From the IMG/VR virus record IMGVR_UViG_3300037343_000006, positions 1 through 60,681 of that record: DNA of 60,681 nucleotides; one strand, 5' to 3'. A model generated the notes under the pieces. That model was not told where the DNA came from and did no database searches. It saw nothing but the letters and a program-made list of their open reading frames with translations. The stretch comes from a virus (taxonomy: Duplodnaviria > Caudoviricetes). The position numbers and the translations under genes were made by a program. This document shows positions 128 to 44,797 of this stretch, piece by piece; position 1 is the first letter of the stretch, and each line of letters opens with the position of its first letter.

Positions 128-1060
128 GCTGCCTTGGGCGAGCTCGCTACGGAGCTTGGTGTCACTGAAGAAAGCCTGCTTCAGCAGATCGGGCAGACTG
201 AACAGTCGTTGCTGGACCAGATCGGCGGCCTTGAAACTCAAATCGGTAACGTCGAAGATGCGCTCTTTGCACGGGTGCAGGAGCTAGAAGACTCGGGCAT
301 TGCGCGGGATCAGGCACTGCAGAGCGCGCTTAGCGAGTTGGCAGGCCAACTCGGCGTTACTGAAACGACACTGCTTACCCAGATGGGGGAGACCGCACAG
401 TCCCTGCAAGATCAGCTTACTGGACTCGAAACTTCGACCCAGTCCGACCTAGATTTTATCTCGTCGCTCATTGGCAAACCTGCTCGTGATGTTACGCAGG
501 TTGACATTGACTTTGTGGCCGACCTAATCGCACAGCAAGAAGTTATCACGGACCTAAGTATGTCGCAGCGTCAATACGACGTGACGGGTGACGGTCAAAT
601 TACTCAGGACGACTTCGCCCTGCTTGAACAGGCATTGGCGGGCACCAATACTACCTTTGCTCCGGGGTCTATTTTTGGCCCCGCTACTGGGATATACGCA
701 CAGCAAGAGCAAAACCTCGCTACGCAGCTTGCCGCAGAGCAGCAAACGCAGCAGCAAATTGAACAGCAAACCCAGACCCAAACTCAGCTTGCGACACAAC
801 TACAAACCCAACTGCAGGCGCAGGACGAGGCAACACGGCGGCGCGCGTTTGGTGATTTTGTGCAGCAGCAAGAAGACGTGTACGGCCAGCGTGTAGACGT
901 GCGCACGCCTGATCCAACGCGGATTAACTACTTCTACGACTTCCAAAGCATGTTCGCTACGCCACAACAGGCGGCGCTGTTCCCCAGCCCCTATGCTGAG
1001 GGTGGACAAGTAGAGGGTACAACTGATAAGTTGTTACGTATAATCGGAGAGATGCAATGA
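2..1060 (+). CDS. C-terminal part of the giant (~2119 aa) putative internal virion/ejection protein that starts at 55255
   Basis: Position 2 corresponds to 60556, in frame with the ORF from 55255. It continues the 69-aa repeats, then has an EF-hand/dockerin-like loop (DVTGDGQITQDD) and a C-terminal YAEGG. Confidence 0.85.
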   Translation: MLDQLANIQTGLEGQIGDVEASLLDRVQELEDAGIQRDDALGAALGELATELGVTEESLLQQIGQTEQSLLDQIGGLETQIGNVEDALFARVQELEDSGIARDQALQSALSELAGQLGVTETTLLTQMGETAQSLQDQLTGLETSTQSDLDFISSLIGKPARDVTQVDIDFVADLIAQQEVITDLSMSQRQYDVTGDGQITQDDFALLEQALAGTNTTFAPGSIFGPATGIYAQQEQNLATQLAAEQQTQQQIEQQTQTQTQLATQLQTQLQAQDEATRRRAFGDFVQQQEDVYGQRVDVRTPDPTRINYFYDFQSMFATPQQAALFPSPYAEGGQVEGTTDKLLRIIGEMQ

Positions 1061-1839
1061 CGTTATGGTCTAAAGCTTTAGATGCTTTAACTAACGCTGC
1101 CAGCAACGTGGATATGGGTGCGCTGCTATCGCTCGTAGGCAGCTACGGTATAACTAATTCAGGTTCGGAGTTCTTTAGCGGCACTTCGCCCCAAGTAGGC
1201 TATCAAGGTGGCATCCCAAGCTACACGTTTGAGCGTGCAGAAGTACCCGGTGCGTTTGATCCTGACCGGCGTCCCGGAAGCTCTGGGCAGCGGTATATGT
1301 CCCAGCGGATGTTTACGCCAGAAGGGCAAGCAAGCGCCATGCCTGCACTGGAGCAAGAGGCTCAAGGGCTCGCTGCGCTCAACGCTGCCAATCCAATGCG
1401 GCAATCTCGTCCAGCAGCTCCACCGCCCCGCCAGCAAGAAGCGCAACAAGGCAATCGCTCCCCGATTGTATCTCGGGCCCCTGCACGGGTTATTGAGGAT
1501 CGTCCTGTTATGGAGACCTTAGAAGGACTAGCGGGTTATACCCCCCGGTACGCTGCAGGGGGCATTGCGTCTATACAACCAAGAAAAGGCTACTATCTTG
1601 GCGGCCCTACCGATGGTATGGCAGATCAAGTTCCGGCGCAGATCGACGGACGCCAGCCAGCGGCACTTAGCGATGGCGAGTTTGTCATCCCTGCAGATGT
1701 CGTTAGCCATCTTGGCAATGGAAATTCGGATGCCGGGGCAAATCAACTCCACGGCATGATGGACCGTATAAGGCAGGAGCGGACCGGAACAACGCAACAA
1801 GGCAAGCAGATTAACCCTGCTTCCTTCATGCCCACGTGA
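1057..1839 (+). CDS. Putative internal virion protein with tape-measure-type C-terminal module (GG..DG..D..PA.LSDGEFVIPA)
   Basis: 260 aa, ATGA overlap with the upstream gene. YAAGG...GPTDGMADQVPA...LSDGEFVIPADVV resembles the C-terminal motif of many tape-measure proteins. Confidence 0.7.
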   Translation: MTLWSKALDALTNAASNVDMGALLSLVGSYGITNSGSEFFSGTSPQVGYQGGIPSYTFERAEVPGAFDPDRRPGSSGQRYMSQRMFTPEGQASAMPALEQEAQGLAALNAANPMRQSRPAAPPPRQQEAQQGNRSPIVSRAPARVIEDRPVMETLEGLAGYTPRYAAGGIASIQPRKGYYLGGPTDGMADQVPAQIDGRQPAALSDGEFVIPADVVSHLGNGNSDAGANQLHGMMDRIRQERTGTTQQGKQINPASFMPT

Positions 1840-1847
1840 GGTAAACC

Positions 1848-2720
1848 ATGGCAGGCGAAACCACAAACCCTACGACCGGCACTACAAACGTAGACCCGAT
1901 GGCTGGGCAGCAGACTGGTACGGAATCCTCCCTCTCTAACTGGGCTGGCCCCTACGTCACCGACATGCTCGGGCGCGGTCAGGCCATGGCTAATCAGCCG
2001 TACCAAGCGTACATGGGGCCGCTCACCGCTGGACCCTCTGCTGCGGAATCGGCGGCGTTCCAAGGTATTGCGGGCTTGTCCATCCCTACGGACCAGATGG
2101 GCGCGTATGTACCCCAGCAGTTCACTGCGGAATCTGCGCAGCAGTACATGAACCCGTATCTGATGGCGTCACTGCAACCGCAGATCGACGAAGCTCGTCG
2201 CCAAGCCGAAATGCAGCGGGTGCAGGACGCTGGGCGACTGACGCAGGCTGGTGCTTTTGGGGGCTCTCGGCAGGCAGTTATGGAATCCGAAGGCAACCGC
2301 AACCTCTTGCAAAACCTCGCGGGGATCACCGGTACTGGGTACGCCAGCGCATACGACCGCGCCATGCAGCAGTTTAACACTGAGCAAGGTCGCCAGATGG
2401 AAGCGCAGACCGCGGCTAACACCTACGGCCTTGCTGGCCTAACAAAGCAGGCTGAACTCGGCGGTATCGAGCGGGGCATCGGCCAAGCAGGTATGGACGC
2501 AGACCGCATGCAGTTCGAAGAAGAGCGCGACTTCCCGTTCAAGCAGGTCCAGTACATGCAGTCACTCCTGCAGAACCTGCCGATCGCGGCGCAGTCCTAC
2601 TCGTACATGCAGCCCAGCCAGCTGTCGTCGGTGCTATCCGGCGCGGGGGGCATCCAAGAACTATTTGATATGCTTACGGGCGCTGCGTCAGCAACCCCCG
2701 CTACTGGCACAACTCCTTAA
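1848..2720 (+). CDS. Putative ejection/pilot protein
   Basis: 290 aa, GAGG RBS; Gln/Ala/Gly-rich with YMNPY and GAFGGSRQ motifs of the kind seen in podovirus internal proteins; lies in the ejection-protein cluster. Confidence 0.6.
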   Translation: MAGETTNPTTGTTNVDPMAGQQTGTESSLSNWAGPYVTDMLGRGQAMANQPYQAYMGPLTAGPSAAESAAFQGIAGLSIPTDQMGAYVPQQFTAESAQQYMNPYLMASLQPQIDEARRQAEMQRVQDAGRLTQAGAFGGSRQAVMESEGNRNLLQNLAGITGTGYASAYDRAMQQFNTEQGRQMEAQTAANTYGLAGLTKQAELGGIERGIGQAGMDADRMQFEEERDFPFKQVQYMQSLLQNLPIAAQSYSYMQPSQLSSVLSGAGGIQELFDMLTGAASATPATGTTP

Positions 2721-2731
2721 GAGGGTCTACG

Positions 2732-4663
2732 ATGGCAATCGACCAAGAAATTCAACGTAAAGTAGACGCCTATCGGGGCAATCCACAGCAGCTTATGCAG
2801 CGGTACCAGCAGAATCAACAGCTGATAGACCTCCTTGCGCTACAGAAGCTCAAGTCCGAGAAGGAAGCTGCGGCGCGCGATATGCAGATGAAGATGCAGC
2901 AGCAGCCGGGGACGATTGCGCAGCAGCGTGAAGCTGAGCTTCTTGATATGACAAAGCAAGAGATGATGCAGCAGACGCAAGGCGTCTTGCAGCAGCGTCA
3001 GGCGCAGCAGCAGCAGAATATGCAGCAGGTAGCTCAGCAGGGTCTCGGCGCACTTGCCAACCAGCGCCCTGCCGCTCCGCAGCCTGCCGCTCCGCAGCCT
3101 GCACCTCAAGGGGCTCCGCAAGGCCAGCCCATGCCACGTATGGCTCAAGGTGGGATCGTCGCGTTTGCGCCGGGTGGGTATGTCGGTGGGGTGACTCAAG
3201 AAGATATCGACGCGTATCGTGCGAATATTACAAAAAGTAGCGGGCAGAGCGGGCAGAGCTCTCGTAACACTTTTCATCGGCTTAGGCAGATGTCAGACGA
3301 AGCGATCGCACAGCGCATCGCAGCGTCACGCGAGCCAAGCTCGCGCCAGCGTAATAGGGCCGCTGCACGGCCGGGGTACCTAGATCGCATAATTAGCGGT
3401 AATTCCGCGGGCCCCACTGTGGGAGAACCCGGTGACAGTATCGGCACACTTTCGGGAGCTTCGCGGTCCGTAAGCGGCAAGGTGCCGCTCGAAACAGCCG
3501 CGCCTATTGCGCGGTTATTAGACCAAGAGGGTGGTCGGCCTGACCTCCTAGACCCAAGAAACCAAATTGTAGACCCGCGCCAACCGGGCACGTCTGACGC
3601 AGAAACCGCGCGTATGGGGCAAGCGCCAACTACGGGGGGCATCTCTACGCTAGGCCCTGACGACGGACTACGTGGCGGGCCTGCTCCTGCTACGGCGGGG
3701 ACACCTGATGCGGCTAGCTCTGGTATTGCGGGGCTTGGTGGCGGCCTACCCGGACTTGGCGGGGGCGGTGCAGATGCTGCGATGGAGCGTGGGTTCCAGA
3801 TTTCTGACCAATACACCGGACGCGCAGAAAAAGCTGGCCGCTACGAGGATATGGAATCCGAGATGCGGGCCCTCGATGCAGAGATCTACGACCCGCGCGA
3901 GGAGCGCCGGGATCAGCTCAAAGCGTTCTTGGCGGGCACTGCCAACACGACCAACTTCGGCTCAACCATGGCCGGTGGTACGTTGGCGTCGCTTAACATG
4001 CGGCAGAGCCAGAAGGCGGACCGTCGCAAGCGCCTGCAAGACGTCTTCGAGATGGCGGAGCGTGGTATGACACTTGACACTGCACTTGCTGAGGGTGGAC
4101 TGCGTCTTGGGCAGTCGATGTATTCTGAGGTTATGGCCAACCAGCGCGCTGCGCTTTCCGCCGCTGCGTCATTGCGGTCCTCAGAGCTACGAGCCGAGGT
4201 CGATCGCGCGAAGCTCGAGTATGATAAACTGAAGGACAACCGTAGCTTTGGCTTGCAAGAGCGTGAGCTTGAAATCGAGCAGGCTCGTAATGAAGCTACT
4301 CAGGCGCTGACCGCGGCGGAAAACGCCACGCGTACTTTTGCTGCTGTGTCCCTAGCCCTTGACCGTGTTCAGGATCAGGAAGCCGCGGTTCGCAAGTATG
4401 TGGTAGAAGCCTCTCAACTGCCAATCTTACAAGATCAGCTTATGCTGGCGACGGACGAAGAAGAAGCCGCAAACATACAGGAAGCAATAGCAGCTGAAGA
4501 GGTGGGTGTAGCTATTCGCGCGGAACAAATCTTTGACGCTATGCGCGGCGTAGAGACACGCGACCTGCTTGCTGCAGAATTGCTCTCGTTTACGGGCACC
4601 GGTGCGTCTATGCTATCCATGAAAGATATTGCGCGTATCGAGCAGCTTGACGGAGAAGAGTAA
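2732..4663 (+). CDS. Putative internal virion protein
   Basis: 643 aa; Gln-rich N-terminus, MAQGG/FAPGG motifs, coiled-coil-like C-terminus; gene context. Confidence 0.6.
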   Translation: MAIDQEIQRKVDAYRGNPQQLMQRYQQNQQLIDLLALQKLKSEKEAAARDMQMKMQQQPGTIAQQREAELLDMTKQEMMQQTQGVLQQRQAQQQQNMQQVAQQGLGALANQRPAAPQPAAPQPAPQGAPQGQPMPRMAQGGIVAFAPGGYVGGVTQEDIDAYRANITKSSGQSGQSSRNTFHRLRQMSDEAIAQRIAASREPSSRQRNRAAARPGYLDRIISGNSAGPTVGEPGDSIGTLSGASRSVSGKVPLETAAPIARLLDQEGGRPDLLDPRNQIVDPRQPGTSDAETARMGQAPTTGGISTLGPDDGLRGGPAPATAGTPDAASSGIAGLGGGLPGLGGGGADAAMERGFQISDQYTGRAEKAGRYEDMESEMRALDAEIYDPREERRDQLKAFLAGTANTTNFGSTMAGGTLASLNMRQSQKADRRKRLQDVFEMAERGMTLDTALAEGGLRLGQSMYSEVMANQRAALSAAASLRSSELRAEVDRAKLEYDKLKDNRSFGLQERELEIEQARNEATQALTAAENATRTFAAVSLALDRVQDQEAAVRKYVVEASQLPILQDQLMLATDEEEAANIQEAIAAEEVGVAIRAEQIFDAMRGVETRDLLAAELLSFTGTGASMLSMKDIARIEQLDGEE

Positions 4664-4666
4664 CAT

Positions 4667-7600
4667 ATGGCGCGGTATAATCTCACGCTTAAGGATGGCT
4701 CTGCGTTTGAAGTAGAGGCACCAGCAGGCGCTTCCCAAGCGGAAATCCTACGCCGCGCCAATCAACAGATGTCCGTCCGCGGGATGAACGAGCGTAGGGA
4801 CGCACGCACTGCAGAGCGCCAAACGCAACTTGCCGAATTGGACGCAATGCGGCCCCCGCCGCGGGAGCCAGAAACTGGCTTCCTCGGGGATTTAGTCGGG
4901 GGTTTCGGCGCGGGCGTCGTCAATATCGGCGAGACTGCAGCCCTCGGTGCCGCTACGCTGCTCGACGAGGAGCAAGAACTCGCAGCGCGTGAGCGCATCC
5001 AGAACGCGGCCAGCGCCATTCGGCCCAGTATGGGCGACGAGGAAGACCTCGCCTACAAAATCGGCTCTACCTTCGGCTCGATCGCCGGGTTTATCGGTGC
5101 AGCTGCCACCGTTACGTATGGTGCGGGCGCTCTCGGTCTTGGCGTTGCCGGTGCAGGTATCGCGGGCCTTGTCGGCGCGGGTACCCTTGGTGTTGGTGCA
5201 GCTACTGGTGAGGCAAGTGAGCGTGCTCGCGCCGCCGGAGCCACCCAAGAAGAACGCAACCGCGCAATTATGCAAGCCATCCCAGTCGGTGCTTCCGAAG
5301 TGCTTCCGCTTCGCCGTATTCTGGGCAAGCTAACCGGCGACCTCGGCGAAGAATTGGTTCAGACTTTCCGCCAGCGCGTAGTCAGCGCGTTGCGCACTGG
5401 TGGCGAAGAAGCCGCACAGGAAGCCGCAGCGGGCATCGCACAGAACCTTATCGAGCGTGGCTACAACATCGACCAAGCCGTCCTCGAGGGTGCGGGCGAA
5501 GCAGCTGCCTTGGGCGGCGGTGCCGGTGCGACCATTCAGGTACTCGTGGACTTGTTTGCTGGCCGCCGTGCGCGCGGTGCCACTCCACCACCAGAAGGTC
5601 CAGCGCAAGGTGAGTTGTTCCCCGGCGCTGATCTTGGCCAAGCGCCCACCCGTGTCATGGGTGACCAGCGTGAGATGTTCCCCGAGGAAGACTTGGGTAT
5701 GGCACCCGAGCGTCCGGACGAGCGCCAAGGCGAGTTGTTTAGCGCGCAGGATCAACAATCGGCAGCGTTTGCCCGCACCGCGCGCCGCGCGGATGAAGAG
5801 CGCGCCCGCCTTATGGAGCGCCCCATATCTGAGTTCGAGTCGGCAGGTGACCCGTTCTTAGAGCGTACCAAAGCCGAAAGAGATGCAGCTCGTGCGGGGA
5901 TAGCTGGGCTACAAAGGCCCGAGCAGCCGGAGCCTGAACAGCGGGATATGATCCGCGAACTCGAAGCGGCGACAATCCCCGAAGAAGAACAGCGTGCTCA
6001 GGCAGCCGCCCGTGAGCGTGAAGGACTTCGCGCCGCTGGACGTGGTGACGAAGCTGCATTTGAGCAGCCTGACTTGTTTGCACTGCAGCAAGAACAAGAG
6101 CGCCGTCGGCTTGGACCTGAAGAGCTGCGTCGGCCCGACCAGTTCATGGATGTGCCGGAAGCGGCGGAGACAGTTACGCCCGAGCAGCCCGATGCCATGG
6201 GTGATCTCGTGGATATGGCGGACCAGCGCCAGCGCACAGCGGCAGAAGATGCCGACATCGCAGACCAGCTCGCCGCTATCGACGCTGAAGAAGGCGCGCA
6301 GCAGCAACAAGCCGCGGCACTGCGCGCTGAGTCAGACATTGAGACCATCACCGGCCAGCAGGAAACGCAGCGGCAGCAAGCCACCGAGCAAGGTCGGCGT
6401 AGCATCCTACAAGATGTTATTAAGAAGACCCCGAGCCGCAACTACAACCGCGTGTCTCGGATGTACGAGGATGCGCTCACAAAGGCGGGTTATCAGGGCG
6501 ATAAAGCCAAGCCGACTGCGGCGGAAATCCAAACTATTCAGCGTGCTGTTAACGTACAGCGGGCCGAGCGCCCTGAGCCAGTGTCGCCTGTCGCAGAGCC
6601 GATTAAGCTGCCGCCTGAAGCTACGCAGCTGCAGGAGATGGAGTCGCGCATCCCTGAGCGCGCAGCGCAGCGCGAGCCAGAACAGCTTGGTATGCCCGGT
6701 ATCCGTCGCCGGATTCAAGAAGCACCCGCGCGTGAGGGCATGGCCCCAGAGGCGCAAGCCGCACCAGAAACTGTAACCGACGAGATGCTTGACCAGATGG
6801 GTATCGCTCCGCGGTCGCCCATTCGGCAGCGCCTACGTGGTAAGGACTTAAATGACCCTACAACGCGCGAAATCCTTACTTCTTTTGCGAATCAGCCACG
6901 TACTTCTCAGACTGCAGAGTTGGGTATTAGCCGCCGCCTTGAGGGGGTTCCCGAAGAGCAACCCGACCTCTTCGCACCTAGCGGAAGACGTAGCGCAGCT
7001 GCGCAGCCAGCTCCGCAACAAACACCTGCAGGCCCCGCAGCTCAGCCAGCACCTAGTGCGCAGCAGAACGCCCCGCAACAACTTGAACTTTTCCCAGAGA
7101 CCGCACAAGGGGTTACAGATGGCACTGCAGCACCTAACCAGCAAAGAGATCGAGCAAGCGTTCGCGGTGGTGGACGCGGCGTGGCAGGACCCGGAGGGGT
7201 CGGAGGTACGGGTGGAGGTGCCAGAACACCTACAGCACCTGAGCCCAGAGGACTGGGAGCACGTATCGCGAGCGCTGTACCTGCTGCAGCACCAAAAGCT
7301 GCAGAGCGTAGTACACTAGGGGAAGGCGGTACGCGTCGTAATGTTATGCCGACGCTGCCGCGGCGTCCGATAATCGACCCAAAAACTCTAAAGCCAATCC
7401 GCGAAGAGCGTGTCGGCCCGACGTCTCGTGCTCTTGCACCGCGCGAAAAGATTTCAGCAAAATCTGAACCCAAGGTCAGCGGTGACCAAGTCACCAAGCA
7501 GCTCGCGGACTGGTACGAGGCTAACGTCTCGGCACCGGCGAAGCGGTTTGTCAAAGAGCTCGGGATGTCGATCACAAGTCCGTTAACGATCGCCGACAAG

Positions 7601-31212: not shown

Positions 31213-31222
31213 CTTCTTCTCC

Positions 31223-31960: not shown

Positions 31961-32006
31961 CGCGGACACGCACCATCAGATGATACTTTACGATAGGCGC
32001 TTTTTT

Positions 32007-32291: not shown

Positions 32292-32294
32292 GAT

Positions 32295-32450: not shown

Positions 32451-32498
32451 GGTGATGGCGAAGATCGCCACCACCCCGAAGATGTCAGACAGTTTCAC
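32424..32498 (-). CDS. Putative 24-aa hydrophobic membrane peptide
   Basis: GTGA overlap with the stop of 32495-33013; MKLSDIFGVVAIFAITYAFLLMTP; ends just before the terminator. Confidence 0.4.
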   Translation of the reverse strand: MKLSDIFGVVAIFAITYAFLLMTP

Positions 32499-34159: not shown

Positions 34160-35702
34160 GCTGCTGGACCTCGGCGATGTCGAGATAGAAGCACTGCTGG
34201 AGAATCTGGACGGGATGAGCCCCGAGGAGCTGGCTGAGATCGACCTGATGGTTGACGAGCTGGCTAACCGTAAAACAAATCAGGATGCGTATGACGACCT
34301 GCTAGCGTTCTGCAAGAAGATGGACCCGAACTATCTTGTGGGGCGGCACCACCGCATCCTTGCCAACATGCTGACAGCCATTGAGCGTGGGGATAAAGAC
34401 CGTATCTGCGTGAACATGCCACCACGCCACGGTAAATCGCAGCTCGTGTCTATATTCTATCCTGCGTGGTTCCTTGGGCGGAACCCGGACAAGAAGGTTA
34501 TGATGGTGTCTCACACCACGGACCTCGCCGTGGACTTCGGGCGCAAGGTGCGTAACCTCATCGCGACAGATACGTACAAGTCTATATTCCCCACAGTCTC
34601 GCTCGCTACCGACTCTAAGTCTGCAGGGCGGTGGAACACTAACATGAAGGGCGAGTATTTTGCCTGCGGCATCGGTAGCTCGATCGCGGGCCGCGGTGCT
34701 GACCTTTTGCTCGTGGACGACCCCCACTCAGAGCAGGACGTGCTGAATGGTAACTTCAGTGCCTTTGAGCGAGCCTATGAGTGGTTCACATTCGGCGCGC
34801 GTACCCGCCTGATGCCGGGCGGACGGGTAGCTATTGTACAGACGCGCTGGCACCTTGACGACCTTACAGGCCGTGTAACACGTGACATGGGGAAGAACGC
34901 TGAGGCCGACCAGTATGAGGTGGTGGAGTTCCCCGCGATCCTCGACGTCGAGGACCCCAAAACAAAGAAGATTATACAAAAGCCGCTCTGGCCAGAGTTC
35001 TTTGATCTGGCAGCGCTAGCGCGCACCAAGGCATCCATGCCGGTGTTTCAGTGGAACGCGCAGTACCAGCAGCAGCCCACCGCCGAAGAGGCTGCGCTCA
35101 TCAAGCGGGATTGGTGGCAGCAGTGGGAGAAGGACGACGCGCCCAGCTGTGAGTATATAATCATGTCGCTCGACGCTGCAGCCGAGAAACACAACCGTGC
35201 CGACTTCACCGCACTAACAACTTGGGGTGTGTTCCTCAACGAAGAGACTAACGCGCACAACATCATATTGTTAAATAGCATAAAGCAGCGTATGGAGTTC
35301 CCTGAGCTTAAACAGATGGCGATGGAGGCGTACCGTGAATGGGAGCCTGACTCGTTTATTGTTGAGAAGAAGAGTTCGGGCACTGCACTGTATCAGGAGA
35401 TGCGTCGGATGGGGCTGCCAGTCTCAGAATATACACCGCACCGCGGGTCAGGTGACAAGCTGGCGCGACTAAATTCAGTTGCAGACATCGTGGCATCGGG
35501 TATCTGCTGGGTTCCACAGACACGCTGGGCCGAAGAAGTGGTCGAAGAGATTGCTGGATTTCCATTTATGTCGCATGATGACTTGGTGGACTCTACAGTT
35601 ATGGCCCTCATGCGGTTCCGGAGCGGAGGGTTTATCCGCCTGCCGACCGACGAGGAAGACGAGCAGAGATACTTCAAACAACGCCGGGGCGGCTTCTACT
35701 GA
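34152..35702 (+). CDS. terL: Terminase large subunit
   Basis: MPPRHGKS (Walker A), GRGADLLLVDDP, TRWHLDD, QYQQQP, HDDLVDS nuclease motif. Confidence 0.95.
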   Translation: MNKLLDLGDVEIEALLENLDGMSPEELAEIDLMVDELANRKTNQDAYDDLLAFCKKMDPNYLVGRHHRILANMLTAIERGDKDRICVNMPPRHGKSQLVSIFYPAWFLGRNPDKKVMMVSHTTDLAVDFGRKVRNLIATDTYKSIFPTVSLATDSKSAGRWNTNMKGEYFACGIGSSIAGRGADLLLVDDPHSEQDVLNGNFSAFERAYEWFTFGARTRLMPGGRVAIVQTRWHLDDLTGRVTRDMGKNAEADQYEVVEFPAILDVEDPKTKKIIQKPLWPEFFDLAALARTKASMPVFQWNAQYQQQPTAEEAALIKRDWWQQWEKDDAPSCEYIIMSLDAAAEKHNRADFTALTTWGVFLNEETNAHNIILLNSIKQRMEFPELKQMAMEAYREWEPDSFIVEKKSSGTALYQEMRRMGLPVSEYTPHRGSGDKLARLNSVADIVASGICWVPQTRWAEEVVEEIAGFPFMSHDDLVDSTVMALMRFRSGGFIRLPTDEEDEQRYFKQRRGGFY

Positions 35703-35712
35703 GGGATAAGAC

Positions 35713-38181: not shown

Positions 38182-38184
38182 CCT

Positions 38185-38382
38185 ATGGCAAAGACCGTCT
38201 TTGACGTGCTCACAGATAAGATCGACGAGCAAATCTCGTCTGCAACGCAATTCCTAGCCGGGGGGTCTCCCAAGGACTACGCCGCGTATAGGGAAGTTGT
38301 TGGATTAATTCGGGGTCTCGAATCCAGCAAATCGTACATTGAAGACCTCTCGCGTAACTATATGGACAACGATGATGACTGA
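38185..38382 (+). CDS. Small conserved head-region protein
   Basis: 65 aa; G..KDYAAYREVVGLIRGL; between portal and GroES-like genes. Confidence 0.7.
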   Translation: MAKTVFDVLTDKIDEQISSATQFLAGGSPKDYAAYREVVGLIRGLESSKSYIEDLSRNYMDNDDD

Positions 38383-38749
38383 AGCAGCAGTTAAGATTAA
38401 CGAACAGGAGTTTGAGGCACAGCTGCCCAAACCAGTGGGGTACCGCGTACTCATTGCGCTCCCGCAAGTCTCAGAGACCTACGAGGGTACAAGCATTATC
38501 AAGACGGATAAGGAGCGCGACCGCGACCATATCATGTCGATCATTGGGCTTGTTGTTGACGTTGGCGAGCAGGCGTACTCTGACGCAGACCGGTTTCCTA
38601 CCGGCGCATGGTGCGAACCCGGCGACTACGTCATGTTCCGCATGAACTCGGGCACGCGTTTCCGTATGGGCGATACTGAATATCGCCTGATGAATGATGA
38701 CTCGATTGAAGCGGTGGTTGCTGACCCCCGCGGCATCCAGCGCGCGTAA
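38372..38749 (+). CDS. GroES/Cpn10-like co-chaperonin
   Basis: PVGYRVLI...GLVVDVG...GDYVMF...GT...EYRLMNDDSIEAVV matches the Cpn10 pattern. Confidence 0.85.
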   Translation: MMTEAAVKINEQEFEAQLPKPVGYRVLIALPQVSETYEGTSIIKTDKERDRDHIMSIIGLVVDVGEQAYSDADRFPTGAWCEPGDYVMFRMNSGTRFRMGDTEYRLMNDDSIEAVVADPRGIQRA

Positions 38750-38760
38750 GGAGCTAGACT

Positions 38761-39762
38761 ATGCCTTTTCAAAAAGTAGAGTTTGGGTTTCCAAACGACG
38801 ACGATGAGACAGTAGAAATCGACATCGAGTCTTCTTCCGCGGAGCCAATGGTAAAGACGGGCAAGGCGAAGGGAGAGATTGAGGTAGTTGTCGAGGACGA
38901 CATAGCAGTAGAGGTTGTCGACGATACGCCCCCTGCCGACCGTAACCGCAAACCGTCTGATCCCCCAGAGGATGTAACCGACGAAGAGCTCGAAGAGTAT
39001 TCCGACAAAGTCCGGAAGCGTATCAAGCACTTTAGTAAAGGTTACCACGACGAGCGGCGGGCTAAAGAAGAGGCCCTGCGTGCGCGCGAGGAGCTTGAGC
39101 GCCTTACGCAGCAGCTGTTTGATGAAAATCAGAAGCTGAAGACCTCCAGCACCAAGAGCCAAGCGGCCCTTATCGAGCAGGCCAAGCGCAGCGCAGCGAT
39201 GGATATGGAGTCCGCGAAGGCTGGGTACAAAGTTGCGTATGACTCTGGCGATGCGGATTCTGTGCTTAATGCACAGGAGAAGCTAACCACTGCTAGGCTT
39301 AAGCTCGAAAAGATAAACAACCTCAAGGTACCAACTTTACAGGAGCGCGAAACACCTGTACAAGTTAAGGCAGAACCCGCCCCGGCACCTAAAGTCGACC
39401 AGCGGGCCTTGGATTGGAAGAACGACAATTCTTGGTTCCAAAGCGATGATGAGATGACGAGTTTTGCGCTGGGGTTGCACAATAAACTCGTCAAAGAGGG
39501 CGTAAGCCCGCAAAGCGATGACTACTACGAGCGGATTAACACTCGTATGCGCCAAGTGTTCCCCGATCAGTTCGAGGACACGAAACAAAGGGCTCCAGAG
39601 CCGAAGCGGAAGACCTCGGTCGTGGCCGCGGCAACGCGCAGTACTGCGCCGAACCGGGTGACACTGACCAAAACACAGGTCCAGATCGCGAAGAGGTTGG
39701 GACTTACCCCGGAACAATACGCCAAACAGGTTGCTATAGATATGAGGAAACAAAATGGCTGA
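38761..39762 (+). CDS. Putative capsid scaffolding protein
   Basis: 333 aa; acidic N-terminus, coiled coil, C-terminal IAKRLGLTPEQYAK; upstream of the capsid gene. Confidence 0.65.
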   Translation: MPFQKVEFGFPNDDDETVEIDIESSSAEPMVKTGKAKGEIEVVVEDDIAVEVVDDTPPADRNRKPSDPPEDVTDEELEEYSDKVRKRIKHFSKGYHDERRAKEEALRAREELERLTQQLFDENQKLKTSSTKSQAALIEQAKRSAAMDMESAKAGYKVAYDSGDADSVLNAQEKLTTARLKLEKINNLKVPTLQERETPVQVKAEPAPAPKVDQRALDWKNDNSWFQSDDEMTSFALGLHNKLVKEGVSPQSDDYYERINTRMRQVFPDQFEDTKQRAPEPKRKTSVVAAATRSTAPNRVTLTKTQVQIAKRLGLTPEQYAKQVAIDMRKQNG

Positions 39763-40204
39763 GAATCGCATAGACCGCGAGCTCGACACCCGTGAAAAGA
39801 CCACGCGTAAACGGACTTGGCAGCGCCCGGAAGTTCTTCCGTCGCCGAATCCCGAGGCAGGTTATGACTATCACTGGGTGCGCATAAGCACGCAAGGGCA
39901 AGTCGACGCCACGAATGTTTCTTCGAAATTGCGTGAAGGTTGGGAACCCGTGAAAGCGGTGGATCACCCAGAGATTACCATGGTCACCGTTGAGAATGAA
40001 CGGTTTGCAGAAAACGTGGTAATTGGTGGATTGATGCTCTGCAAAGCACCTAAAGAGTTGGTCGAGGAGCGTAATGAATATTACACTACCCAGACTAAGT
40101 CTCAGATGCGTTCGGTAGACAACAACTTCATGCGTGAGAACGATCCGCGTATGCCGCTTTTTAACGAGCGGAAGACACGGGTTACCTTTGGTAATGGAAC
40201 TTAA
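39755..40204 (+). CDS. Conserved head-region protein
   Basis: 149 aa; YHWVR, REGWEPV, GGLMLCK. Confidence 0.7.
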   Translation: MAENRIDRELDTREKTTRKRTWQRPEVLPSPNPEAGYDYHWVRISTQGQVDATNVSSKLREGWEPVKAVDHPEITMVTVENERFAENVVIGGLMLCKAPKELVEERNEYYTTQTKSQMRSVDNNFMRENDPRMPLFNERKTRVTFGNGT

Positions 40205-40216
40205 CAGGAGCTAGAT

Positions 40217-40816
40217 ATGGCATATCCTACCGTTGACGCCCCATACGGGCTGAAGCCGATCAATTTGATCGGTGGTCAGGTGTTCGCTGGTGCTACGCGC
40301 CAGATTCCTATTGCTTCGGGCTATGCAACGAACCTGCTGAATGGCGACGTTGTTAAGCTCGTAAGTGACGGTACTCTGGAGAAAGACACCGGAACTACGA
40401 CCGCAACCCCCGTGGGTATTTTTCTTGGCTGCAGATACACGGACCCAAGTCTGGGTTACGAGCTGTATAGCCAGTATTTCCCCGCAAACACCGTAGCATC
40501 CGACATTGTCGCGTATGTTGCGGATGATCCCGACCAGCTGTTTAAGGTCGCCGTCGTGTCTGGCACGACTGTGATTGCAGGCGTTGGCCGCACCGTCGTT
40601 GGTAACAACGTGGCGCTGGTACAAAACGCTGGGACGACCACTACTGGAAACTCGAAAGTCGCCGTGCTTTCGACTTCTGCAGCCACCACGAACACTCTGC
40701 CGATTCGCGTCATCGACGTTATTCCGGATACCAAGACTGGTTCCGATACGTTTGTTGAGCTGGTCGTCAAGTGGAATTGGGGCATGCACCAGTATCAAAA
40801 TGCAACCGGCGTATAA
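40217..40816 (+). CDS. Putative capsid decoration/minor head protein
   Basis: 199 aa, beta-rich; APYGLKP, DDPDQLF; immediately upstream of the major capsid gene. Confidence 0.6.
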   Translation: MAYPTVDAPYGLKPINLIGGQVFAGATRQIPIASGYATNLLNGDVVKLVSDGTLEKDTGTTTATPVGIFLGCRYTDPSLGYELYSQYFPANTVASDIVAYVADDPDQLFKVAVVSGTTVIAGVGRTVVGNNVALVQNAGTTTTGNSKVAVLSTSAATTNTLPIRVIDVIPDTKTGSDTFVELVVKWNWGMHQYQNATGV

Positions 40817-40829
40817 GGAGTAATGTAAC

Positions 40830-41738
40830 ATGGCAATTTCACGCGCCCAGCTACTCAAAGAACTCCTTCCGGGGCTGAACGCTCTGTTCGGTTTGGAGTA
40901 CGCCAAGTATGGTGAAGAGCACGCTGAAATCTTCGAGACCGAGACATCTGATCGCTCGTTTGAAGAAGAAACTAAGCTGTCTGGCTTTTCTGCAGCACCC
41001 GTCAAAAACGAAGGCTCCGCCATCTCGTATGACAATGCTCAGGAAGCATGGACTGCTCGCTACACCCACGAGACCATCGCTATGGGCTTCGCCATCACGG
41101 AGGAAGCCATCGAAGATAACCTGTACGACTCTCTGTCGTCTCGTTATACCAAGGCGTTGGCCCGTGCTATGGCGTACAGCAAGCAGGTAAAGGCAGCGGC
41201 GATCCTCAACAACGCGTTTGACGCAGGCACCACCTACGGTGACGGCCAGACGCTTTGTTCCACTGCCCACCCGTTGGTTTCGGGTGGCACTAACTCCAAC
41301 CGTCCTTCGGTTGCTGCTGACCTCAACGAGACTTCGCTTGAGGCTGCAGTTATCCAGATCGCGGCTTGGACTGACGAACGCGGGATGCTCATTGCATCCC
41401 AGCCACGCAAGCTGGTTATCCCGCCTGCGCTGCAGTTCGTTGCTACTCGTCTACTGGAGACTGAAGGCCGTGTCGGTACCGCCGATAACGACCTGAACGC
41501 TATCCGGAACAACGGGGCGATCCCTGAAGGCTACACGATCAACCACTATCTGACGGACACCAACGCTTGGTTCCTGATGACGGATGTTCCAAACGGCCTG
41601 AAGCACTTCGTCCGTGCACCGATGTCGACGTCCATGGATGCTGACTTCGACACAGGTAACTCGCGCTACAAGGCACGTGAACGTTATTCGTTCGGTGTCT
41701 CGGACCCGCTGGGTATCTTCGGTTCGCCCGGCGCTTAA
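40830..41738 (+). CDS. Major capsid protein
   Basis: 302 aa; MAISRAQLLKELLPGLNALFG...KARERYSFG; TAAGGAG RBS; followed by a terminator. Confidence 0.9.
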   Translation: MAISRAQLLKELLPGLNALFGLEYAKYGEEHAEIFETETSDRSFEEETKLSGFSAAPVKNEGSAISYDNAQEAWTARYTHETIAMGFAITEEAIEDNLYDSLSSRYTKALARAMAYSKQVKAAAILNNAFDAGTTYGDGQTLCSTAHPLVSGGTNSNRPSVAADLNETSLEAAVIQIAAWTDERGMLIASQPRKLVIPPALQFVATRLLETEGRVGTADNDLNAIRNNGAIPEGYTINHYLTDTNAWFLMTDVPNGLKHFVRAPMSTSMDADFDTGNSRYKARERYSFGVSDPLGIFGSPGA

Positions 41739-41758
41739 TCGCACCGGCACCGTTAGGG

Positions 41759-41788
41759 AGGGGCTGCTTCGGTGGCCCCTTTCTTTTT
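41759..41788 (+). terminator. Intrinsic terminator after the capsid gene
   Basis: AGGGGCTGC-TTCG-GTGGCCCCT-TTCTTTTT. Confidence 0.85.
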
Positions 41789-41866
41789 GTTTTGTTATCG
41801 TGTATTCTACCTACATTCCTGACAGCCGCATAGTGTGGCTGACTTGACCCACGACAGGAGATACAC

Positions 41867-42115
41867 ATGGGTACTACAACGTTTAGCGGACCGGTAGTTT
41901 CGACTAACGGCTTTGTTGGCTCCATCACAGGCGATGTTGTTGGCGCAATCAAACTCCCCACATACACCGTTGCGAACGCCCCATCGGCGGCTACAGCAGG
42001 CGCGGGCACTATCATCTATGTGTCCAATGGCGCAGCGGGTTCCCCGATTCTCGCGTTCTCTAATGGCACTGACTGGAAGCGGTCGGATACCGGCGCTACC
42101 ATCGCAGCAACGTGA
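41867..42115 (+). CDS. Small structural/decoration-like protein
   Basis: 82 aa; TTFSGPVVSTNGF; AGGAG RBS. Confidence 0.7.
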   Translation: MGTTTFSGPVVSTNGFVGSITGDVVGAIKLPTYTVANAPSAATAGAGTIIYVSNGAAGSPILAFSNGTDWKRSDTGATIAAT

Positions 42116-42123
42116 GGTGAGCT

Positions 42124-42237
42124 ATGACAATTAAATGGACACTCCCGACACCGGAAGAACTCGCAGCGCGCGGGCTCGACGCGGATGGAAACCCGATCAA
42201 AGCTCCAAAAGTGGCCCCCAAAAAGAAGGAGGGCTAA
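42124..42237 (+). CDS. Small hypothetical protein (37 aa)
   Basis: GAGGTG RBS; MTIKWTLPTPEELAARG...KKKEG; fills the intergenic gap. Confidence 0.5.
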   Translation: MTIKWTLPTPEELAARGLDADGNPIKAPKVAPKKKEG

Positions 42238-42240
42238 CGT

Positions 42241-42519
42241 ATGTCTAGCTCCGATCTTCGGACAAAACGCGTCACCGCAGCGGGGTCGCTAGCTGTAGGC
42301 CCAGCTCGCATCCGGCAGGTTCAGGTTTTGACCACTGCAGGCGGTGCCGGTCGGCTGACCGTGACTGATGGTGACGGGGGCCCACTGGTTCTCGACATCG
42401 ACTTTATTCCGTCTGACTCGCACTCGATCAACATTCCAGACTACGGGATTCGTTGCTCTTCCGATGTCTTTATCACGGCGCTTACAAACATTAGCGCCAT
42501 GACCGTGTTCTACAGCTAA
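42241..42519 (+). CDS. Small beta-rich structural protein
   Basis: 92 aa, GGAGG RBS. Confidence 0.65.
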   Translation: MSSSDLRTKRVTAAGSLAVGPARIRQVQVLTTAGGAGRLTVTDGDGGPLVLDIDFIPSDSHSINIPDYGIRCSSDVFITALTNISAMTVFYS

Positions 42520-42527
42520 GGTGCAGT

Positions 42528-42791
42528 ATGGCGAAGTCTCCAGCATGGCAGCGTAAGGAAGGCAAGAACCCAAAAGGTGGGCTCAATGCCAAAGGCCGCG
42601 CGTCTGCAAAAAAGCAGGGGATGAACCTAAAGCCCCCGGCCCCCAAGGCCAAGGCTGGCACAAAGGACGGCAACCGCCGTAAGAGCTTCTGTGCCCGGAT
42701 GTCTGGCATGAAGAAAAAGCTGACAAGTGAGAAGACAAAGAACGACCCGGATTCTCGGATCAATAAAAGCCTTCGGGCGTGGAACTGCTAA
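42528..42791 (+). CDS. Small basic protein
   Basis: 87 aa, Lys/Arg-rich; GGLNAKGRAS, RRKSFCARM, SLRAWNC. Confidence 0.75.
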   Translation: MAKSPAWQRKEGKNPKGGLNAKGRASAKKQGMNLKPPAPKAKAGTKDGNRRKSFCARMSGMKKKLTSEKTKNDPDSRINKSLRAWNC

Positions 42792-42834
42792 TGCCACCGA
42801 AGTCGGGGCACCGCAAAGCGTAGGAGATAAACTC

Positions 42835-43206
42835 ATGATGAAGAAATACCAGAACGGCGGCATGGCATCGTCTGACCGCCCGAAAATGCGCCCAAAGGCG
42901 CGTCCAGATGACCTTATGGAAGGTAGGAGCTCGGCTGCACCGGCTCGGTCGATCCGCCCCCGCAAGCGCCCCCAAGAAATTGAAGACATGATGTCCTCCG
43001 ACACGGCTGTAGGCCGCGGCAACCGCGCGTCGATGCGGGAAGCCATGGAGATGCCTGAAGGCATGATGGCTGGCGGTAAAGTCGGCATGCACAAAATGCC
43101 TGACGGCACCATGATGAAGGATTCCGCACATAAAATGAAGGCTGGCGGTAAAGTACGGGGTGCGGGTATGGCGTCTAAGGGCGTCCGCGCCTGCAAGATG
43201 ATGTAA
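42835..43206 (+). CDS. Small basic Met-rich protein with three xxxGG motifs
   Basis: 123 aa from ATG 42835 (AGGAG RBS); YQNGG, MMAGG, MKAGG. Confidence 0.7.
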   Translation: MMKKYQNGGMASSDRPKMRPKARPDDLMEGRSSAAPARSIRPRKRPQEIEDMMSSDTAVGRGNRASMREAMEMPEGMMAGGKVGMHKMPDGTMMKDSAHKMKAGGKVRGAGMASKGVRACKMM

Positions 43207-43364
43207 TGCGCAAGCGCTACAAGAAAGGTGGGGCGGTCAAAGACGACTGCTATAGCAAGGTAAAATCTCGCTATAAGGTCTTTCCGTCCGCCTATGCTTC
43301 TGGGGCTATTGCCAAGTGCCGCAAGGTCGGGGCAAAGAACTGGGGCAACAAAGGGTCGAAGTGA
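43206..43364 (+). CDS. Small basic protein (52 aa, not in the ORF track)
   Basis: TAATG coupling; MRKRYKKGGAVKDDCYSKVKSRYKVFPSAYASGAIAKCRK... Confidence 0.7.
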   Translation: MRKRYKKGGAVKDDCYSKVKSRYKVFPSAYASGAIAKCRKVGAKNWGNKGSK

Positions 43365-43642
43365 TGGCGGTTCGCAAGACGGAGAAAGGTGCGGCACTGA
43401 AGCGCTGGTTCAAAGAGGACTGGAAAGACGTGCGCACTGGTAAGGCTTGCGGACGCCAAGAGGGCGAAAGTCGGGGTACTCCGTATTGCAGACCAAGCAA
43501 GCGGGTGTCTGGCAAGACCCCTAAGACTAGCGGTGAAATGAGCTCTTCAGAGAAGAGCAAGAAGGTCGCTGAGAAGAAACGACTAGGGCAACCAGCGGGT
43601 AAACCTCGTAGGGTGTCAGCAGCAAAACGGGGTAGCAAGTGA
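43364..43642 (+). CDS. Small basic protein
   Basis: 92 aa from MAVRK (TGATG coupling); LKRWFKEDWKDV, CGR, PYCRP. Confidence 0.7.
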   Translation: MAVRKTEKGAALKRWFKEDWKDVRTGKACGRQEGESRGTPYCRPSKRVSGKTPKTSGEMSSSEKSKKVAEKKRLGQPAGKPRRVSAAKRGSK

Positions 43643-44322
43643 CCACATCCGGTACCACAGCGTTTAACATGGACTTCACGGAGATCGCCGAGGAAGCATG
43701 GGAACGTGCGGGCCGCGAGATGCGGTCTGGCTATGACCTTCGCACTGCGCGGCGGTCTATGAACTTGATGACGATCGAGTGGCAGAACCGCGGCATCAAC
43801 ATGTGGACCATCGACGAGGGGGTTCTAAGCCTTTCGCAAGGTGTAGCACAGTACGCCCTACCTGCGGACACCATCGACCTACTTGAGCAGGTTATTCGCA
43901 CAGGGGCAGGCAGCAGGCAGCAAGACCTTAATATCTCGCGTATTAGCGTTAGCACCTACTCCACGATTCCTAACAAGACCAACACCGGTAGGCCGATTCA
44001 GGTGTGGATTGAGCGTCTCCGTGACGCCCCACGGATTAATGTCTGGCCGGTGCCGGACTCTAACAACTATACGTTTGTTTACTGGCGCATGCGCCGCGTC
44101 CAAGACGCAGGCTCCGGGGTTCAAACTGCGGATATGAACTTCCGCTTTCTCCCCTGTCTGGTAGCGGGGCTGGCGTACTACATCGCGATGAAGGTGCCCG
44201 AGCTCATCGACCGTATCCCGCTCCTTAAGGCCGAATACGAGGATCAATTCCGGCTTGCTGCCGAAGAAGACCGTGAGAAGGCTCCAATACGGTTCGTACC
44301 TAGCGTGAGGATGGTCCGGTGA
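43639..44322 (+). CDS. Putative head-tail adaptor / tail tubular protein
   Basis: 227 aa; ARRSMNL..EWQNRG.N.W, GRP.Q, WPVPD, GLAYY; gene context. Confidence 0.65.
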   Translation: MTTSGTTAFNMDFTEIAEEAWERAGREMRSGYDLRTARRSMNLMTIEWQNRGINMWTIDEGVLSLSQGVAQYALPADTIDLLEQVIRTGAGSRQQDLNISRISVSTYSTIPNKTNTGRPIQVWIERLRDAPRINVWPVPDSNNYTFVYWRMRRVQDAGSGVQTADMNFRFLPCLVAGLAYYIAMKVPELIDRIPLLKAEYEDQFRLAAEEDREKAPIRFVPSVRMVR

Positions 44323-44630
44323 GTAATCGGTTTGCCTCAAGCCAAAAAGCGATCGGCATATGCGATATATGCGGGTTTCAATACCCGCTACGTAAGCTAC
44401 GCACTACCTTCGTTAAGGGTCGCAAGACAAACTTATTATCTTGCTCAACATGCTGGGACCCGGATCACCCCCAGCTTAAGTTAGGCGAGTTTCCGGTGGA
44501 GGACCCGCAGGCCCTCCGTAACCCACGCCCCGATAGCTCTGAATACGCTCAAAGCCGTGCACAGATCATCCCAGTACGGCAGATAGTTGGCACTGGGTTT
44601 ATCGGGCAAGTCACAGTAATAACTTCATAG
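44319..44630 (+). CDS. Zinc-ribbon protein
   Basis: CDICG...CSTCWDPDHPQ, DPQALRNPRPD. Confidence 0.7.
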   Translation: MSNRFASSQKAIGICDICGFQYPLRKLRTTFVKGRKTNLLSCSTCWDPDHPQLKLGEFPVEDPQALRNPRPDSSEYAQSRAQIIPVRQIVGTGFIGQVTVITS

Positions 44631-44641
44631 GAGATACACTC

Positions 44642-44797
44642 ATGCCTAGCTGCGGAACCAAGAAGATGATGTCTGGTGGTAAAGTCAAAAGCCAGACGAA
44701 GAAGATGAAGAAGCCCGCCAAGAAATCTGGCGGCACGAAGGTCCGTGGCACCGGTGCAGCCACTAAAGGTATCATGGCCCGCGGGCCAATGGGGTAA
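44642..44797 (+). CDS. Small basic protein (51 aa, not in the ORF track)
   Basis: AGGAG RBS; MPSCGTKKMMSGGKVK...KVRGTGAATKGIMARGPMG. Confidence 0.7.
   Translation: MPSCGTKKMMSGGKVKSQTKKMKKPAKKSGGTKVRGTGAATKGIMARGPMG

Follow-up and report, generated by a model that had tools for sequence, protein, structure and literature searches.

Introduction

In phage T4, a short capsid-targeting peptide, found at the N-terminus only, is common to unrelated head-internal proteins and is removed by the prohead protease; ejection proteins of giant phages carry cleavage motifs too. The maturation proteases of the adenain and African swine fever virus (ASFV) type are clan CE cysteine proteases that cut after Gly-Gly (GG) and require a hydrophobic residue at the fourth position ahead of the cleavage site. 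Here we analyse a short motif, [FYM]-x-x-G-G (x, any residue), together with a module named GEFV after its central residues, in viral DNA of 60,681 nucleotides (IMG/VR record IMGVR_UViG_3300037343_000006, positions 1 to 60,681); we refer to this whole stretch as the window. It can be read as a phage genome divided into three strand blocks. An original prediction, made from the sequence alone, had pointed to ten copies of the motif in six late proteins, one of which, of 260 amino acids (aa), also carries the GEFV module.

The closest described systems are phage tape-measure proteins and polyvalent proteins. For lambda gpH, the accessible part of the published report gives the cut site and the catalyst as unknown and residues about 690–817 as unresolved, states that residues 818–849 bind gpI and knows of no enzymatic activity of the protein (PMC12617516). 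The tape measure pb2 of phage T5 is cut after R1127, which, in the accessible part of the report, detaches from pb2 a metallopeptidase motif for which muralytic activity has been reported (PMC10038345), and the authors of the accessible JBD30 text propose, as a prediction, a cut at R1066 (PMC11445458). For polyvalent proteins, Iyer et al. 2017 proposed that zincin-like peptidases release the modules; the accessible part of that paper names no cleavage motif (PMC5512222). In the literature on GEFV in phages and on DUF6321, a domain met in several of the proteins below, we found no description of the motif or of the module.

We propose that the motif is a module-junction mark at which proteins are cut or hinged, and that the GEFV segment is the counterpart of a tape-measure C-terminal fragment. 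This reading draws on sequence comparison and on analogy, and we assign to it a probability of about 0.45. Its parts differ in strength: the motif is very probably a selected junction element, and its cleavage is a tentative proposition, held at distinctly less than even odds.

Results

The motif flanks the GEFV core in fused and unfused proteins

The 260-aa protein consists of an N-terminal hydrophobic helix, a small conserved domain, a linker and a C-terminal part with junction motifs and the GEFV module. We performed a full phmmer scan with residues 157–260 as the query against 1.84 billion cluster representatives (50% identity) and obtained module matches in 9,773 representatives at E ≤ 0.001 and in 6,279 at E ≤ 1e-10. 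The match is nearly always C-terminal, in carriers of 123–1,442 aa with unrelated N-terminal parts. The same division is seen in 35 IMG/VR loci that code for relatives of the 260-aa protein, where the last ~95 residues are near-constant and the N-terminal parts are highly variable in length and sequence. These comparisons show GEFV to be a C-terminal module, about 95 aa long, with a very wide distribution. Every source names its carriers 'hypothetical protein', and defining the module would annotate thousands of such phage proteins.

Among the best 150 window-type representatives, Phe, Tyr or Met (F/Y/M) stands three residues ahead of the GG nearest the core in 122; for the next GG upstream, the corresponding residue is F/Y/M in 96, Leu in 17, Ala in 17, another residue in 10 and none in 10. 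The RW-type subfamily, collected with a protein of Caulobacter phage RW as the query and related to the window family with an hhalign probability of 95.7%, carries the F/Y/M motif upstream of the core in 82/120 sequences and Y-x-x-G-G at the very end in 116/120. Many relatives fuse a part of the type of the window's 290-aa protein downstream of the GEFV module. In these fused forms the motif, often as a tandem pair, lies ~46 aa past the core (101/115), and in unfused forms the chain stops at that distance with nothing further (139/150). Since unfused chains stop where fused ones carry the motif, the motif sits on the module boundary. The window encodes the 260-aa and 290-aa proteins as split genes without the inter-gene motif pair; in the sequences compared, the inter-module motif is dropped, and is dispensable, when the modules are separate genes. 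By eye, some relatives also unite the C-terminal element of the window's giant coiled-coil protein with the modules of the 260-aa protein in a single polypeptide. The suggested co-occurrence of motif and GEFV core is borne out, the core being flanked on both sides in three sequence subfamilies.

The motif recurs in small basic proteins

Orthologues of the small proteins were taken from 80 loci chosen via the adaptor gene, and motifs in distinct sequences were compared with the shuffle expectation. We counted 102 motifs against 10.3 expected for the 124-aa protein (carried by 32/34), 31 against 2.5 for the 52-aa protein (29/29), 33 against 7.0 for the 51-aa protein (24/58) and 25 against 1.6 for the DUF6321 protein (25/31). 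The control families gave 0 against 4.9 (adaptor A, 0/66), 0 against 7.7 (adaptor B, 0/65), 2 against 3.2 (Zn-finger protein, 2/68), 0 against 1.7 (a 92-aa protein at 42241..42519, 0/32) and 1 against 0.8 (the DUF5872 half, 1/29). Enrichment extends to relatives: small basic orthologues hold 3–12 times the expected number, and in the five neighbouring structural families the motif is absent or at expectation.

Position-specific preferences were read from 148 distinct small-protein sequences, which hold 246 GG sites. F/Y/M occupies the third position ahead of GG at 181 of these sites, Tyr reaching 15 times its share in the composition, and Val occupies the second position after GG at 117, or 10 times composition. 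Among the orthologues the copy number and position of the motif vary and the motif type is constant. A leader, M-R-x-Y-Y-K-K-G-G-x-V, opens 25/31 DUF6321 orthologues and all 52-aa orthologues; the window's own DUF6321 protein starts just past the position where the leader would end.

The small proteins show several further features. A search of the ESM Atlas with the 124-aa protein returned unnamed viral clusters only, under 0.9. A Met/His-rich stretch, M-H-x-M-P-D-G-x-x-M-K-D-S-A-H-K, occurs in the 124-aa protein (43072–43131) and in small proteins of two relatives (L044, L046) and may bind metal. Basic proteins of other relatives (L040, L043, L090, L112 and others) contain a dockerin-like cassette, P-D-L-T-G-D-G-K-V-T-Q-A-D-V-L-K-G-R-G. 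The 52-aa protein matches PHROGs only (phrog_727 and others), with no DUF5872 match of its own, and the 92-aa protein encoded next to it (43364–43642) covers DUF5872 profile positions 48–111 of 116. Together they may represent a single DUF5872-type protein whose halves lie in different frames; in the relatives examined, the 52-aa ORF (open reading frame) stays a separate gene.

The motif in larger proteins and more distant phages

Orthologues of the window's 643-aa protein carry M-A-x-G-G-I-[VI]-x-[YF]-x-x-G-G, as a tandem or single copy, in 10/12 distinct ORFs and down to 25–37% identity; one of the two ORFs without it is a 32-aa fragment. In the giant protein, Y-A-[EK]-G-G-Q-V is kept in 3/7 distinct orthologue ORFs, the three closest. 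Planktothrix phage Pag-Yong1 and Pelagibacter phage HTVC023P share the window's gene order and carry the motif in the same gene classes. In Pag-Yong1, checked at the coding-sequence coordinates of the record and for 12 late genes only, these are the GEFV protein, a 533-aa protein and two basic proteins; in HTVC023P they are gp43 (DUF6321 type), gp79, gp82 and the end of gp83, gp79 being a divergent GEFV module with a hidden Markov model (HMM) E-value of 0.016. No GEFV module was found in 50,000 of the 53,013 bases of Roseobacter phage CRP-901.

DUF6321 also occurs in 7,882 longer proteins (154–2,000 aa) among 8,000 candidates scored, many of them with ART-PolyVal, LPD23, DUF4214 or tail-lysozyme domains in addition. 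The best 120 of these long proteins hold 152 motifs against 45.8 expected, mostly of the form Y/F-A-[DEKQS]-G-G. In 140 distinct contexts, Ala is second in 71 and Val stands two residues after GG in 55, and a stretch of the type x-V-E-D-A-L-R-L-A follows the motif in 25/151 occurrences.

Occurrence in the window compared with chance

Translation recovered all ten motif sites where the original prediction had placed them (Table 1), and a hydrophobic residue follows GG within two positions at nine of the ten, the exception being YYLGG-PT. The GEFV string of the 260-aa protein reads TDGMADQVPAQIDGRQPAALSDGEFVIPA, of which the pattern first reported is a compressed form. The six proteins had been described as otherwise dissimilar. 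This is true in part: the 124-aa and 51-aa proteins share a C-terminal G-G-K-V-R-G-x-G-x-A-x-K-G, and the giant and 260-aa proteins are linked by the single polypeptides noted above, by eye, in some relatives.

We performed 2,000 per-protein shuffles of the 76 called proteins (19,299 aa). The whole window proteome contains 19 motifs against 11.2 expected (P = 0.018), and the excess falls on the late side, as had been proposed: 16 against 8.3 on the + strand (P = 0.01) and 3 against 2.9 on the − strand. The six named proteins, a set picked after the sites were known, contain 10 against 1.4 expected, and the remaining 70 contain 9 against 9.7. At the first motif position, Tyr is enriched genome-wide (9 against 4.3) and Met is not (4 against 4.2). 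Within the window alone the excess is modest and suggestive; by the comparative sequence data from relatives, the motif is more than chance.

The layout around the core resembles that of tape-measure proteins

Lambda gpH contains FATGG at 733, GEFV at 753 and YATGG at 778. It thus shares with the window the layout of motif, G-E-F-V core and motif, placed within the unresolved Gly-rich region that, in the accessible part of the report, holds the unmapped cut into gpH* and gpHC (PMC12617516). It differs in being an 853-aa tail-lumen ruler of a long-tailed phage. The carrier in the window, which belongs to a short-tailed phage, has 260 aa and an N-terminal part that varies, and forms no long helical tail-tube ruler of the kind that marks a tape measure. 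The JBD30 tape measure presents FASGG, G-T-G-T-S-D-S-I-P, D-E-F-M and HATGG in the order of the RW-type and window-type modules. A composite order of motif, a stretch of the type G-x-G-x-x-D-x-I-P, G/D-E-[FY]-[VM] and second motif occurs in the window, lambda, JBD30 and the RW type. The link to tape-measure C-termini, drawn in the original prediction, is confirmed for lambda gpH and JBD30.

T5 pb2 is, in the accessible reports, the only tape measure with a mapped cut, and this cut falls in R-A-E-G-G. Written out, the site is F-V-P-R|A-E-G-G-M-M, among only five x-x-x-G-G sites in the 1,219 aa of the protein. Its products are pb2* and the C-terminal fragment pb2C, which has 92 aa and is described as the carrier of the metallopeptidase motif; a cut at the like position would give fragments of 95 aa in the window and 120 aa in lambda. 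We read the likeness to tape measures as one of layout and motif, short of established membership of one family.

The window motif differs in sequence from the T4 capsid-targeting peptide and occurs internally and C-terminally as well as at N-termini. Cleavage after Gly-Gly in the adenovirus register, part of an adenovirus/ASFV analogy drawn earlier, was rejected: the bulky residue, five residues ahead of the position that follows Gly-Gly, lies one position too far from Gly-Gly, and T5 cuts before Ala. Pfam scans of 65 window ORFs (eleven ORFs <66 aa left out) returned no clan CE cysteine protease family.

The system of Iyer et al. is approached in two respects, the window's 2,322-aa LPD39 protein adjoining motif genes and DUF6321 occurring together with the motif in long polyvalent-type proteins. 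It is approached less in a third, the 2,322-aa protein having zero [FYM]-x-x-G-G sites. A segment of this protein, H-E-M-T-H … E-E-F-V-A-E-A-F (8318–8500), matches SprT-like (E 0.0029) and lethal-factor-family (E 0.019) profiles below the Pfam cut-off and is a candidate zincin peptidase.

Sequence and predicted structure of the GEFV module

AlphaFold2 models the small N-terminal domain of the 260-aa protein with a predicted local distance difference test (pLDDT) score >90, the helix at residues 225–243 with about 81 and residues 140–220 with <50. The small domain, G-Y-Q-G-G-I-P-x-Y … R-R-P-G-S-x-G-x-R-Y-F (window 1204–1416), gave no family or fold match. In a natural fusion of a GEFV protein with a 290-aa-type protein (P0075), the GEFV region is again modelled at pLDDT <50, and the 290-aa-type domain, counterpart of the window's 290-aa protein, as long helices. 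Complex prediction with three copies of residues 150–260 scored 0.00, which speaks neither for nor against binding.

For the GEFV module, Pfam returned no family up to E 1 and PHROG none, a profile search of PDB sequences gave low-complexity noise only, and Foldseek found no match in the PDB at E ≤ 0.001. In 64 window-type sequences, 31 alignment columns are invariant, and D186, D190, E208, D214, H218, N221 and N223 are invariant or nearly so. Across window type, RW type, HTVC023P, Pag-Yong1 and lambda, constancy is limited, by eye, to G-E-[FY]-V, a Gly and the acidic residue that comes after the tetrapeptide; RW type, HTVC023P and lambda do not retain H218 or most of the polar residues. In its alignment and in the models, the GEFV segment has the profile of a conserved binding or processing segment and not that of an enzyme.

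Weighing of the interpretations

The proposed scheme builds on the observed motif positions, their conservation, the link to GEFV, the fused and split forms and the presence of the motif in the tape measures of lambda, JBD30 and T5. The consensus would be a bulky residue followed by [AK]-x-G-G-x-[VI]. This element would mark termini and inter-module joints of proteins that the podophage most likely packs inside the particle and ejects. It is found near the end of the giant protein, on either flank of the GEFV segment in what would be a membrane-anchored ejection protein, twice in succession in the 643-aa protein, and in the N-termini and repeats of the small Lys-rich proteins. Cutting or hinging would take place there during assembly or ejection and, by analogy with T5 pb2, a cut would fall between the bulky residue and Ala. 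The GEFV segment would be no separate enzyme, and would instead correspond to T5 pb2C or lambda gpHC, becoming structured only on binding a partner or within the exit channel; a fragment resembling pb2C/gpHC, and docking in that channel, could consist of the 95 residues that begin with A166. We infer the virion-internal location of the motif-bearing proteins, as well as any cut, the identity of the cutter and the binding target of GEFV. The shared tag of the original prediction persists in this form, as a conserved element of probable ejection or internal proteins and of small basic proteins that is absent or at expectation in neighbouring structural families.

The finding bears on the lambda gpH cut site and on how podophages and polyvalent proteins sort and release injected modules. 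As the boundary motif spans lambda to marine podophages, it offers a concrete, cheap test, and if it were a hinge only it would still be a useful boundary marker for parsing ejection proteins. An extension that we consider unlikely is that 'bulky residue | Ala-x-Gly-Gly-x-Val/Ile' constitutes a code for maturation cleavage that applies generally to proteins leaving the particle before the DNA does. If true, the code would cover lambda gpH, T5 pb2, podophage ejection proteins, polyvalent proteins and small basic head proteins, and would have a single reader, either a protease of the host or a zincin in the virion, for which the polyvalent H-E-x-x-H segment is an example. Lambda gpH would then be cut at F733|A734 or Y778|A779, with the GEFV segment as the released plug fragment.

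A number of results weigh against a junction mark that is cut or hinged. Literature searches by phage name found no virion proteomics for the Pag-Yong1/MinM2/DSL-LC04 group, HTVC023P or CRP-901, and Pfam and PHROGs recognised no prohead protease between the portal and capsid genes or elsewhere. Similarity to lambda gpH is weak (hhalign probability 41.6%, E 2.7e-4; blastp E 0.016), with 1.8 bits against the module HMM, inside the shuffle range. JBD30 is marginal: it scores 7.2 bits, and the highest of 900 shuffles scores 6.0. T5 pb2C has no similarity to the module (hhalign probability 0.4%), and with a joint HMM of window-type and RW-type sequences neither lambda gpH nor T5 pb2 rises above shuffles. 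The R1066 proposed for JBD30 lies between its two motifs and not at a motif, and T5 pb2 has Arg in place of F/Y/M at the bulky position.

The counts themselves add to these reservations. All comparative counts rest on related sequences and are not independent events. Proteome-wide, the motif is not raised in HTVC023P (18 against 15.9), CRP-901 (15 against 12.3, in the 50,000 bases covered) or the GC-rich Pag-Yong1 (8 against 10.3, from poorly called genes). Ahead of the DUF6321 core it is frequent and not obligatory, lying within 120 aa in 25/79 proteins with room for it (18 of these 25 at 49–66 aa ahead of an S-F-C-A-R landmark). It is missing from 34/58 orthologues of the 51-aa protein, and the arrays in basic proteins, spaced 8–12 aa, would yield tiny peptides if all sites were cut. 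The best six proteins of a shuffle reach 10 motifs in 18% of shuffles; since the six proteins were also chosen post hoc, the window alone is merely suggestive.

The motif could instead be an uncut docking or packaging tag: one and the same part of the virion, be it portal, scaffold, core or exit channel, would bind the peptide and so load or bundle unrelated cargo, much as with the capsid-targeting peptide of T4 internal proteins minus its removal. Such a tag would suit the several copies at termini of small and large ejection-type proteins, the predicted disorder of the motif regions, as is often the case for binding peptides, and the leader M-R-x-Y-Y-K-K-G-G-x-V common to two different mini-domains. 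It would also suit the confinement of the motif to late proteins that are probably internal (16 against 8.3 for late genes, 3 against 2.9 for early ones) and its absence from adaptors, with the other controls absent or at expectation. We rate it as unlikely, given that split genes drop the inter-module pair so that neither product keeps it, that the window's DUF6321 protein has lost the leader and that no partner was identified. Quite unlikely, too, is a compositional or structural by-product, in which Gly-rich linkers would contain small turn or helix-cap elements shared through common descent and low complexity. The modest window excess with its post hoc protein set (best-six P = 0.18), Met at expectation before x-x-G-G and the proteome-wide counts at expectation in three relatives all fit this view, and the helix-like x-V-E-D-A-L-R-L-A after the motif (25/151, in polyvalent-type proteins) could make the motif a structural cap. 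Composition does not account for the position-specific preferences (Tyr 15 times and Val 10 times composition; Ala second in 71/140), for recurrence at equivalent boundaries in subfamilies too distant to align, or for orthologues that vary in copy number and position yet keep the motif type.

Two further explanations concern the GEFV segment and assign an activity to it. As a small muralytic enzyme that the flanking motifs merely delimit, it would parallel the T5 cut, which frees a metallopeptidase motif with reported muralytic activity (PMC10038345, accessible part), and would make use of the near-invariant D, E, H, N and S residues of the window-type module. We judge this improbable: T5 pb2C has no profile similarity to the module, H218 and most polar residues are lost in RW type, HTVC023P and lambda, gpH is without known enzymatic activity in the accessible text (PMC12617516), and the segment is predicted to be disordered and matches no peptidase family. 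The segment may hold a small metal site. In the original prediction the module was a possible protease or reader that works in trans on the other tagged proteins, and this role we consider very improbable. Tag and module do occur together in the window, Pag-Yong1 and HTVC023P, CRP-901 yielded no module in the bases covered and has a motif count at expectation, and how lambda gpH is cut is still given as unknown in the accessible report (PMC12617516). A trans-acting enzyme is disfavoured by the lack of any Pfam or PHROG family, PDB sequence or fold match, by the lack of a catalytic set conserved across subfamilies and by a pLDDT <50 over the core. The module also carries its own motifs in cis, the gene block offers another candidate peptidase in the polyvalent H-E-x-x-H segment, and zincin-type processors of polyvalent proteins have been proposed by Iyer et al. 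(PMC5512222, accessible part).

Genome organisation and additional features

The window portal is 39–43% identical to the portals of Pelagibacter phages HTVC023P and HTVC027P, Pag-Yong1, Synechococcus phage MinM2 and CRP-901; for the Caulobacter phages of the RW group the identity is 31.5%. The gene content is of podophage type, SU10-type adaptors included, and no tail tube or sheath gene was recognised in it; the phage is a marine short-tailed podophage of the HTVC023P/Pag-Yong1 type. The early block encodes a family A DNA polymerase, an SNF2 helicase, a protein of DUF927 primase-helicase type and a PD-(D/E)XK nuclease. The block at 33557..60681 contains, besides the genes listed in Table 1, two SU10-type adaptors, fibre and lysis genes and a 618-aa virion protein.

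Motif genes lie at two places, in the block after the tail genes, the usual podophage place for internal and ejection proteins, a class to which we would assign their products, and in a small Lys-rich cluster (42528..43642 and 44642..44797) between capsid and adaptor genes. Two members of the cluster match Pfam families above the gathering score, DUF6321 with 78.2 bits (cut-off 28.5) and DUF5872 with 53.9 bits (cut-off 27.5).

Table 1 Features of the window and positions of the motif sites
Feature	Position	Strand	Notes
Strand block	2..11635	+	Holds giant-protein end and the 260-, 290-, 643- and 2,322-aa proteins
Giant coiled-coil protein, C-terminal 352 aa	2..1060	+	YAEGG (992) in YAEGG-Q-V, 992-1012, 20 aa from stop
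260-aa ejection-type protein	1057..1839	+	Four parts
Junction motifs	1549..1605	+	YAAGG-I-A (1549) and YYLGG (1591), directly upstream of GEFV core
GEFV core, then helix at residues 225-243	1606..1836	+	P-T-D-G-M-A-D ... L-S-D-G-E-F-V-I-P-A-D-V-V-S-H-L-G-N-G-N-S
290-aa protein	1848..2720	+	phrog_4287, E 0.0089
643-aa Gln-rich/Gly-rich protein	2732..4663	+	MAQGG (3140) and FAPGG (3164) in tandem, MAQGG-IVA-FAPGG-YV, 3140-3184
2,322-aa polyvalent-type protein	4667..11635	+	LPD39 domain, DarB-like C-terminal region, H-E-M-T-H segment
Strand block	11726..33013	-	Replication and other early functions
Strand block	33557..60681	+	Terminase, 822-aa portal, GroES-like protein, 302-aa capsid protein
DUF6321 small basic protein	42528..42791	+	Window copy without motif
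124-aa (about 123-aa) Lys/Met-rich protein	42835..43206	+	YQNGG (42847), MMAGG (43063), MKAGG (43135); C-terminal G-G-K-V-R-G-A-G-M-A-S-K-G
52-aa protein	43206..43364	+	YKKGG (43218) in leader M-R-K-R-Y-K-K-G-G-A-V, then P-S-A-Y-A-S-G-A-I-A-K-C-R-K mini-domain
92-aa protein	43364..43642	+	Matches DUF5872 C-terminal half; without motif; used as control
51-aa Lys-rich protein	44642..44797	+	MMSGG (44666) in MMSGG-K-V; C-terminal V-R-G-T-G-A-A-T-K-G
Giant coiled-coil protein, N-terminal 1,809 aa	55255..60681	+	Ends off the window inside a 207-bp tandem repeat

The giant coiled-coil protein probably continues from the end of the window into its start. The 207-base-pair (bp) tandem repeat spans 60007–60681 (98% matches, 3.3 copies, 69-aa units), similar units occur at 2–about 420, and the window boundary falls within the repeat array of the protein. 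The frames across the two ends are one base apart, and therefore the repeat number and the closure may be assembly-dependent. Residues 167–212 of the giant protein contain a dockerin/EF-hand-like loop, D-x-T-G-D-G-x-[IV]-T-Q-x-D (Dockerin_1, E 0.0022, below the cut-off).

Two SU10-type adaptor paralogues, at 43639–44322 and 44801–45430, enclose a Zn-finger-like 103-aa protein and the 51-aa basic protein. A 638-aa protein at 46514..48430 contains a 153-bp unit in 9.5 copies (79% matches, 46788–48245), with beta-propeller/lactonase-like repeat matches and a tail-fibre-like C-end. In the early block on the − strand, consecutive genes at 26849–29503 code for a DUF2201 putative metallopeptidase plus VWA protein, a GcrA-like protein and an AAA ATPase. 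Near-perfect direct repeats at 32295–32450 and 33113–33268 (75 and 76 bp, 2.1 copies each) flank the ORF at 32495..33013; these two different repeats lie where the early and late blocks diverge and may be regulatory or origin elements.

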